From sequence record M25640.1: a stretch of DNA of 1,786 nucleotides, one strand, 5' to 3'. The position numbers and the translations under genes were made by a program. This document shows positions 1 to 1,726 of this stretch, piece by piece. This DNA is from Escherichia phage alpha3. A model generated the notes under the pieces. The model had not been told where the DNA came from and did not search any database. It worked only from the letters and a program-made list of their open reading frames with translations. Within the stretch, counting starts at the first letter, position 1, and every line of letters starts with the position of its first letter.

Positions 1-72
1 GGTCGTGTGATTGGTACCATCGCTACGACTCAGGTTATTCATGAATACCAAGTCCTTCAGCCGCTTAAATAA
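1..72 (+). CDS. G: 3' end of major spike protein G (partial; start is upstream of the window)
   Basis: Frame 1 is open from nt 1 and reads GRVIGTIATTQVIHEYQVLQPLK, then TAA at 70-72. The ...QVI.E...LQPLK-stop ending matches the C-terminus of phiX174 G as I recall it (...NQVIKEIICLQPLK). The ORF lies directly upstream of H, as in the microvirus order F-G-H-A. Only 23 codons are visible. Confidence 0.75.
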   Translation, partial: GRVIGTIATTQVIHEYQVLQPLK

Positions 73-99
73 AAGGCTGCCGCACTCCCGGTTAGATGC

Positions 100-117
100 C
101 TGCCCAGTGTAGGGCAG
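100..117 (+). repeat. Inverted repeat / stem-loop: 6-bp stem CTGCCC (100-105) with GGGCAG (112-117), 6-nt loop AGTGTA
   Basis: Perfect Watson-Crick complementarity read directly from the sequence; all-GC-rich stem, no following U-tract. Confidence 0.6.
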
Positions 118-155
118 ACCGAGCCGTACGGAGATACCCGATAAACTAGGAACGT

Positions 156-176
156 GGAAGGCGTTAGCCGCCTTCC
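156..176 (+). repeat. Inverted repeat / stem-loop: 8-bp stem GGAAGGCG (156-163) with CGCCTTCC (169-176), 5-nt loop TTAGC
   Basis: Perfect 8-bp complementarity read directly from the sequence; followed by CTCCTG rather than a U-tract, so not a canonical intrinsic terminator. Confidence 0.6.
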
Positions 177-194
177 CTCCTGCTAAGCCCAAAA

Positions 195-199
195 AGGAG
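195..199 (+). promoter_or_regulatory. Shine-Dalgarno sequence (AGGAG) for gene H
   Basis: AGGAG at 195-199, 8 nt upstream of the H ATG at 208. Confidence 0.7.
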
Positions 200-207
200 T
201 TACAGCG

Positions 208-1209: not shown

Positions 1210-1226
1210 TTCCCTAAACCCTTATG

Positions 1227-1265
1227 AGACTCTTGCTTCAACGAAACGAAGTAGGAGTCTTTTTT
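1227..1265 (+). terminator. Rho-independent-terminator-like hairpin with U-tract; Shine-Dalgarno AGGAG (1253-1257) embedded in the 3' arm
   Basis: 13-bp stem (1227-1239 pairs with 1248-1260; 11 Watson-Crick plus 2 G-U pairs), 8-nt loop AACGAAAC, followed by TTTTT (1261-1265) and then ATG at 1266. Same layout as the phiX174 hairpin GCCTCCAAATCTTGGAGGCTTTTTTATG before gene A, as I recall it. Confidence 0.5.
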
Positions 1266-1409
1266 ATGAAACCAGCTCATCGCCTCTATCATCCTGTGCT
1301 TGGTTCTTGGTTGTTTAAGTGCCCCGTTTATGTTCGTTATGAGTCCCTTCATCACGGTCGCCTCATTAAGGTTCGTGCTGTTCGTGACCTTTCCCGCGTC
1401 AGCAGTTGA
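1266..1409 (+). CDS. Hypothetical small basic protein (47 aa), candidate leader ORF
   Basis: ATG at 1266 sits 8 nt after AGGAG (1253-1257) and directly after the U-tract, at the position equivalent to the phiX174 gene A start. It reads MKPAHRLYHPVLGSWLFKCPVYVRYESLHHGRLIKVRAVRDLSRVSS, then TGA at 1407-1409 (9 K/R, 4 H, 2 D/E). I recognise no homolog; expression is unproven. Confidence 0.35.
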   Translation: MKPAHRLYHPVLGSWLFKCPVYVRYESLHHGRLIKVRAVRDLSRVSS

Positions 1410-1633
1410 TTGCCAATCCTAAAAATTGCTTTGACGTTGTCATTGCTGAGATTGACGTTACTCACCTTTCTGTCACTTGGTATGATTTTGAAGCTGAAGA
1501 GTATGCTGAGTGTGATTCCGGCACTATGGAGCTTGTTGTTTCTCAGGTAAATTCTGGCGAGGTTATTCGCTCATCTGAAGACCTGTTTGTTGATGTTGAT
1601 GATATGGAATGGCCTTATGAAATTGCGGAGTAA
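1406..1633 (+). CDS. Hypothetical highly acidic protein (75 aa, TTG start)
   Basis: ORF from the six-frame track. The TTG start at 1406 overlaps the TGA stop of the preceding ORF (TTGA); no independent SD. 19 Asp/Glu versus 2 Lys/Arg. TAA at 1631-1633. An alternative internal ATG at 1526 has no SD. Coding status uncertain. Confidence 0.3.
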   Translation: MIANPKNCFDVVIAEIDVTHLSVTWYDFEAEEYAECDSGTMELVVSQVNSGEVIRSSEDLFVDVDDMEWPYEIAE

Positions 1634-1636
1634 GTC

Positions 1637-1726
1637 ATGGAAACTGTTATCGGAAAATTTATTGCTCTGGCTATTGTTGCTCTTATGCTGTATGGAATTG
1701 CCTGTTTGATTCGGAGGTTTCCGTGA
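1637..1726 (+). CDS. Hypothetical 29-aa hydrophobic single-helix membrane peptide
   Basis: ATG at 1637 is preceded by GGAG (1627-1630) at 6-nt spacing. It reads METVIGKFIALAIVALMLYGIACLIRRFP, then TGA at 1724-1726. An 18-residue uninterrupted hydrophobic core is flanked by K7 and R26-R27. Too short for the supplied ORF track; found by manual reading. Confidence 0.4.
   Translation: METVIGKFIALAIVALMLYGIACLIRRFP

Follow-up and report, generated by a model that had tools for sequence, protein, structure and literature searches.

The 135-nt spacer between genes G and H of coliphage alpha3 (positions 73-207, + strand, of the whole 1,786-nt stretch of DNA analyzed here, called the window below) is almost certainly the complementary-strand (negative-strand) origin of this phage, of the type known from G4. 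Its assignment as a minus-strand origin cassette (oric) is based on an end-to-end alignment with the F-G spacer of G4 and on the conservation of the element among related phages. The G4 homologue is among the best-studied primase substrates. Homology to it, a start site with the same geometry, and the dnaG (primase) dependence reported for the alpha3 site argue together that the G4 mechanism is the best explanation of positions 73-207; by analogy with G4, the packaged viral (+) strand would be where the cassette works as a structure.

This origin is already known: both its sequence and its assignment date from 1979. As far as the review PMC13037366 reports the work of Sims, Capon and Dressler 1979 (J Biol Chem 254:12615), the negative-strand origins of alpha3, St-1, and phiK are primase-dependent, and the 1979 title that it cites calls these sites "dnaG (primase)-dependent." Since none of the differences between alpha3 and the G4 origin is new in kind, the spacer has to be regarded as an already-known feature, to which our study makes two small additions: covariation for the long-range stem in the 5' part of the spacer, and a constraint on the loop motif of hairpin I across modern genomes.

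Genomic setting of the G-H spacer

The window is identical base for base to X60322.1/NC_001330 across the record junction, positions 1-1200 corresponding to X60322.1 4888-6087 and positions 1201-1786 to X60322.1 1-586, which establishes it as alpha3. An earlier note on this DNA had pointed to an alpha3-like lineage, which was the right direction and an understatement, the sequence being that of alpha3 itself. The window begins with the final 72 nt of G, covers the G-H spacer and the whole of H, and ends inside the long H-A spacer. Gene G (major spike protein) is represented by its 3' end at 1-72 on the + strand, with 100% identity to X60322.1 4888-4959 and an annotated end of the G coding sequence at 4959; frame 1 is open up to the TAA at 70-72, which is the G stop codon. 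Gene H (minor spike or DNA pilot protein, 330 aa), an open reading frame annotated as a coding sequence in X60322.1 and DQ085810.2, lies at 208-1200 on the + strand. Because the G stop is at 70-72 and the H ATG at 208, the spacer between them runs from 73 to 207, the 135 nt given in the earlier note, whose figure of 8 nt for the G-H gap in phiX174 proved equally accurate (G ends at 2922 and H starts at 2931).

The list of open reading frames contains none of at least 30 aa wholly inside 73-207. One frame at 11-112 (+) covers the first 40 nt of the spacer, starting within G in a frame different from that of G. The Shine-Dalgarno sequence of H, AAGGAG at 194-199 (+), is situated 8 nt upstream of the ATG at 208 and falls within the 3' end of the cassette. 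An origin annotation is absent from the alpha3 GenBank records X60322.1, NC_001330, and DQ085810.2, and one could therefore be added to the public records.

Beyond gene H, the window holds several features that deserve mention in their own right. Just past the H stop lies a terminator-like hairpin of 14 bp at 1226-1261 (+), followed by a T-run at 1262-1265; the window has no other, and this one probably serves to terminate transcription after H. Directly behind its 3' arm and T-run comes the ATG at 1266 of an open reading frame of 122 aa, one of three such frames in the H-A spacer (122, 29, and 58 aa) that are annotated solely in phage Lilleven. The 122-aa frame (window 1266-1633, equivalent to DQ085810.2 66-434) has no PHROG match and is unannotated in most records. 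It shows 72-97% amino acid identity by tblastn and is intact in alpha3-like phages, except for the X60322-derived alpha3 and St-1 records, which give two-piece matches. In the window, it is split near 1392-1396 into frames of 61 and 75 aa because TTCCC(C)GCG has one C fewer than in the resequenced alpha3 DQ085810.2, and the 1992 sequence probably lacks this C through a sequencing error. The 29-aa frame (window 1637-1726) encodes a hydrophobic peptide, METVIGKFIALAIVALMLYGIACLIRRFP, has a GGAG upstream, and is entered as a "hypothetical protein" in Lilleven. The 58-aa frame, likewise a "hypothetical protein" there, occupies 1724-1786 and continues past the end of the window, its GTG start overlapping the stop of the 29-aa frame (GTGA).

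Homology, conservation, and folding of the spacer

Over its entire length, the alpha3 G-H spacer can be aligned with the F-G spacer of G4 (NC_001420, about 3884-4019), with a mean column identity of 87% in a 3-sequence spacer alignment; a second spacer alignment comprised 18 phages. By blastn, the alpha3 spacer matched the G4-group phages ID52 and NC6 with 81.3% identity over 133 nt (E=3e-23), and the same spacer was found in St-1, phiK, Lilleven, and ten WA13-like phages. The earlier note had read the spacer as a DnaG-dependent origin of the G4/alpha3/St-1/phiK type, to be checked by alignment with the known origins. That reading is supported by the full-length homology to the annotated primer/origin spacer of G4.

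The position of the putative start of primer synthesis follows the same alignment. In the G4 record, a feature called "RNA primer of replication" covers 3970-3997, and an "origin of compl. strand synthesis" is entered at 3998. The 5' end of the G4 primer, T3997 of a CTG, and T181 of the window share one alignment column, and the start T stands 5 nt 3' of the last base of the 8-bp GC-rich hairpin I in alpha3 and G4 alike. The two start sites are thus positionally equivalent, and a start opposite T181, as proposed earlier, agrees with the annotated G4 start both in its column and in its distance from the hairpin. The CTG column is invariant in 23 of 23 homologues. In alpha3, the primase start block CCCTCCTGCTAAGCCCAA (175-192, +) carries this CTG at 180-182, T181 being the predicted template for the first primer nucleotide. 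The longer block CCCTCCTGCTAAGCCCAAAAAGGAG at 175-199 contains both the CTG at 180-182 and the H Shine-Dalgarno sequence at 194-199; it lies, as the earlier note had placed it, directly 3' of the second hairpin with the H ribosome-binding site inside. The G4 consensus given in that note, CCCTACTGCAAAGCCAAAAGGA, is exactly G4 3991-4012, and the window holds a near match to it, the 15-mer core of the G4 block having a single match in the window with 2 mismatches (0.01 expected). This 15-mer start-block core occurs once in the alpha3 genome.

The predicted RNA primer, 5'-AGGAGGGAAGGCGGCUAACGCCUUCCAC-3' (- strand), is the reverse complement of window 154-181, whose columns correspond by homology to G4 3970-3997. 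From its homology to the annotated 28-nt G4 primer, we infer that the alpha3 primer would have this sequence and run leftward through stem-loop I. The dependence of alpha3 on primase and SSB and the exact primer start would likewise follow from the G4 biochemistry and the cited literature.

The noncoding spacer is the best-conserved segment of the region. Between alpha3 and ten WA13-like phages, it is 90-98% identical, compared with 60-63% for G and 80-82% for H, and its length is constant to within 1-2 nt among relatives. Strong purifying selection thus acts on this noncoding DNA, which is better conserved than both of its flanking genes. Conservation extends beyond the stems, with hardly any variation in the unpaired blocks GCCGTACGGAGATACCCGA (122-140) and CCTCCTGCTAAGCC (177-190). 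The first of them (122-140, +), with 14 of its 19 columns invariant in 18 phages, includes the palindrome CCGTACGG (124-131); it also holds the sequence homologous to the 5' arm of stem-loop II in G4. Two parts of the spacer vary: the 15 nt directly upstream of the H ATG, and a linker (141-155, +) that has only 3 of 15 columns invariant and is located where G4 has the 3' arm of its stem-loop II.

Two GC-rich hairpins, at 100-117 and 156-176, had been singled out in the earlier note. Both are found there and both belong to the minimum-energy fold of the single-stranded DNA; comparison among relatives gives them very different standing. The hairpin at 156-176 (+) is stem-loop I, GGAAGGCG / TTAGC / CGCCTTCC, with an 8-bp stem formed by 156-163 and 169-176 and a folding energy of -9.4 kcal/mol as DNA. 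It is 100% paired in the 18 phages and includes a compensatory change of A159:T173 to C:G between the alpha3 and G4 groups. At its tip (161-168), alpha3 carries the "mini-hairpin" GCGTTAGC, an octamer unique in the alpha3 genome. The review PMC13037366 describes the mini-hairpin motif GCGNNAGC/GCGNAGC for the hairpin I site of G4, St-1, and alpha3 and, in the part where it cites Sims et al. 1979, places GCGTTAGC in the origin hairpin I of St-1 and alpha3. The loop forms that we found (GCGTTAGC, GCGCAAGC, GCGTAAGC, GCGAAAGC, and GCGTAGC) vary only at the N positions of GCGNNAGC or GCGNAGC.

The equivalent of G4 stem-loop III spans 75-120 (+). Its outer stem joins 75-81 (GGCTGCC) with 113-120 (GGCAG-A-CC), A118 being bulged, and pairing of 82-86 with 106-110 may extend it inward. 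Two partners are possible for the 3' arm GGGCAG(A)CC (112-120), the distal GGCTGCC (75-81) and the local CTGCCC (100-105), the latter giving the 6-bp hairpin CTGCCC/AGTGTA/GGGCAG at 100-117 (+) that appears in the alpha3 minimum-energy structure. In the computed folds of alpha3, the local pairing is ~3 kcal/mol more stable than the long-range one (-23.1 versus -20.0 kcal/mol); in G4, the long stem-loop is the clear minimum-energy fold (-29.1 versus -22.7 kcal/mol with the local hairpin forced). Of the 23 homologues, 22 have Watson-Crick pairs at all 7 positions of the long-range stem 75-81/113-120, the base pairs of which covary, with compensatory changes at two positions (T78:A116 to C:G and G79:C115 to A:T). 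When positions 115 and 116 vary (GGCAG, GGCGG, GGTGG), the distal arm covaries (CTGCC, CCGCC, CCACC) while the local arm at 100-105 remains constant, which leaves T.G and G.T mismatches in the local hairpin. The latter is perfect in only 4 of the 23 homologues, the others having T.G/G.T mismatches or worse, and plasmid CP062859 has CTACAG in place of the local arm, with both distal arms retained. Hence, comparison of the sequences favors the long-range stem rather than the local hairpin as the conserved 5' structure. The local hairpin at 100-117 was downgraded as a conserved element, the compensatory changes being located in the long-range stem.

Two further structural candidates were tried and set aside. 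The pairing of G4 stem-loop II (CGGAGA/TCTCCG) is formed in the G4 group; in alpha3-like phages, 1 of its 6 positions is Watson-Crick, plus one G.T, and the pairing, seen in 46% of cells overall, is not above shuffled or slid controls. The three-hairpin model of G4 is therefore not transferable unchanged, since stem-loop II is without a counterpart in alpha3-like phages, and it is evidently not class-defining, because alpha3, St-1, and phiK are reported members of the class. The palindrome CCGTACGG, to which the earlier note had drawn attention, is present as placed at 124-131 and is not conserved as a palindrome; phiK, ID62, WA45, G4, and the plasmids lack its symmetry, and it is therefore probably incidental. 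The folding energy of the alpha3 spacer as a whole is only modestly unusual against shuffled sequences (z = -1.88, 7 of 200 shuffles folding as well), and the case for the origin is consequently built on homology and conservation, not on thermodynamics. The G4 spacer has a z of -4.69.

Other readings of the spacer and its homologues on plasmids

Three other functions could be envisaged for a structured spacer at this place. The first is that the hairpins act mainly in the mRNA, as a terminator, an attenuator, or an RNA-stability element after G. In phiX174, terminators follow J, F, G, and H; the alpha3 structures stand on the coding-sense strand, hairpin I forms in 4 of 4 RNA folds, and H is followed by a terminator-like hairpin with its T-run (1226-1261). 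However, neither spacer hairpin is followed by a T-run, hairpin I being followed by CCCTCCTGC. A scan for terminators and promoters found none in 73-207 and a single terminator-like site in the window, at 1226-1261; terminator and promoter-mimic readings of the spacer were disfavored on this ground. Moreover, a role in the mRNA leaves unexplained the near-invariance of the unpaired linker and loop (GAGATACCCGA, CTGCTAAGCC) while the genes diverged by 20-40%, as well as the homology to a G4 element that lies between different genes. A search of the whole window against Rfam (E<=1) returned three sub-threshold chance matches inside H and none in the spacer. We consider a mainly mRNA-level function to be very improbable, although the spacer hairpins may have an additional role at the RNA level.

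The second reading holds the spacer to be a primosome assembly site of the phiX174 type, with a PriA/n' hairpin on which the full PriA-PriB-PriC-DnaT-DnaB-DnaC-DnaG primosome would be assembled. The relative phiX174 does rely on a site of this kind, located among intergenic hairpins, and the alpha3 spacer is itself rich in hairpins. Nevertheless, records of the phiX174 group are absent from both the 30 blastn matches of the alpha3 spacer and the 365 of the G4 spacer, and the alpha3 spacer is homologous to the G4 origin, which requires only primase and SSB (PMC6783573). The title of the 1979 paper cited in PMC13037366, for its part, says "dnaG (primase)-dependent" for the alpha3 site. A phiX174-type site at 73-207 is, in our view, hardly credible.

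The third reading, which makes the spacer primarily a translational control of H in which CUCCU (177-181) pairs with AGGAG (195-199) to throttle the low-copy H, draws on the presence of this pairing in the minimum-energy structures of alpha3 (DNA and RNA) and of ID21 and on the retention of CTCCT and GGAG in all alpha3-like phages, and yet we give it next to no credit, as the pairing is not predicted for St-1 and is missing from the ID21 centroid structure, the CTACT of G4 is unable to pair with its Shine-Dalgarno sequence, and the invariant start block already accounts for CTCCT. In the folding models, such pairing would be at most a secondary role layered on the origin.

The G4-type origin, which we retain as the reading of 73-207, has homologues outside the cultured phages. 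Window 73-189 matched E. coli plasmids of two types, with 83% identity for CP057337/CP057350 and 74% for CP062859/CP062904. The homologue lies on the - strand in an unannotated gap of each plasmid, at 1066-1201 of the 9,653-bp CP057337.1 and at 867-1002 of the 8,009-bp NZ_CP062859.1, in each case on the strand opposite to every annotated gene. These plasmid copies retain the arms of stem-loop III, the GAGATACCCG block, and TCCCTCCTGCTAAGCC with its CTG, with a hairpin I remodeled around a GCGAAGC-type core. Both plasmid types encode an AlpA-like helix-turn-helix protein, an Sf6-type small-terminase-like protein, and a resolvase; a recognizable Rep was found among the genes of neither. Among 5,426 complete E. 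coli genomes, two had a match to the origin, both on the 8,009-bp plasmid and none on the chromosome.

A wider scan with the 16-mer TCCCTMCTGCWAAGCC gave at least 120 loci in genome contigs and 43 in viral contigs, this motif being too short for such collections. With a profile built from the 18 phages, nhmmer confirmed only microvirus genomes of ~6 kb and the two plasmid types; checked in this way, the 16-mer loci revealed the origin in no bacterial or archaeal contig and in no larger viral contig. Three metagenomic microviruses from IMG/VR (L144, L152, and L180; 6142-6143 nt) carry the same cassette, with nhmmer E values of about 1e-43, and widen the alpha3-like group past the cultured phages.

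It is possible, though we remain doubtful, that the origin is a portable cassette of ~120 nt, which G4-like phages carry at the F-G junction and alpha3-like phages at the G-H junction, in both with a Shine-Dalgarno sequence at its downstream end, and which stands, at 74-83% identity, on the noncoding strand of small (8-9.7 kb) E. coli plasmids. If the plasmid copies were functional primase-entry sites, they would represent a module recruiting the host primase that is exchanged between microviruses and satellite-like plasmids, and they would hint at a single-stranded stage in those plasmids.

Proposed initiation and comparison with known systems

By analogy with G4, we propose the following course of events. 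The infecting circular viral (+) strand would become coated by host SSB, while two elements, the long stem-loop (75-120) and the highly stable, GC-rich hairpin I (156-176), would remain duplex and keep the adjacent DNA free of SSB. E. coli DnaG primase would then bind the SSB-phased structure, PriA, DnaB, and DnaC being dispensable, and would start the primer opposite T181 of the 5'-CTG-3' at 180-182, five bases 3' of hairpin I. The primer, 5'-AGGAGGGAAGGCGGCUAACGCCUUCCAC, would be copied leftwards through hairpin I for up to about 28 nt and extended by DNA polymerase III, resulting in the double-stranded replicative form. At its 3' end, the cassette also provides the ribosome-binding site of the downstream gene (H in alpha3, G in G4).

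This model is taken from the G4 origin, for which priming requires primase and SSB only (PMC6783573). The G4ori hairpins phase SSB and leave SSB-free flanks for primase, which begins, in the case of the E. coli enzyme, at the T of CTG located 3' of three stem-loops (PMC6783573). According to the same source, two primases cooperate at G4ori, the primer is up to 28 nt long, and after priming, the G4 circle is converted to the duplex by polymerase III (PMC6783573).

As to the systems already described, the alpha3 origin reported in 1979 has, to the extent that PMC13037366 conveys Sims et al., the same sequence, with no difference from the present one. The phiX174 primosome assembly site resembles the alpha3 origin in being an intergenic hairpin element that converts viral single-stranded DNA to the replicative form. 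It shows no similarity to the alpha3 spacer among the blastn matches. The start of the phiX174 complementary strand is PriA-dependent and needs the full primosome. For G4, in contrast with the full primosome of the phiX174 site, primase and SSB suffice (PMC6783573).

Turning to plasmids, the copies that we found differ from the phage cassettes in their remodeled hairpin I and in lying opposite to all annotated genes. G4-type single-strand initiation (ssi) signals have reportedly been seen on plasmids before, for example by Nomura et al. in 1991 and by Masai and Arai in 1989.

Altogether, a close counterpart of the alpha3 origin is G4oric, with which it shares the 8-bp hairpin I, the CTGC(A/T)AAGCC block, the long stem-loop III, and a cassette ending in the Shine-Dalgarno sequence of the next gene. 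The two differ in their position (F-G in G4 and G-H in alpha3), and the AAGGA of G4 is the Shine-Dalgarno sequence of gene G whereas the homologous AAGGAG of alpha3 serves H. They also differ in the outer stem of stem-loop III (9 bp in G4 versus 7 bp in alpha3), in the loop of hairpin I (GCGAAAGC in G4 versus GCGTTAGC in alpha3), and in stem-loop II (CGGAGA/TCTCCG), which is present in G4 and absent from alpha3-like phages. The refinements that our comparison brings to the G4 model are modest: the long-range stem carries compensatory changes, and stem-loop II is evolutionarily dispensable, with the sequence of its 5' arm kept.
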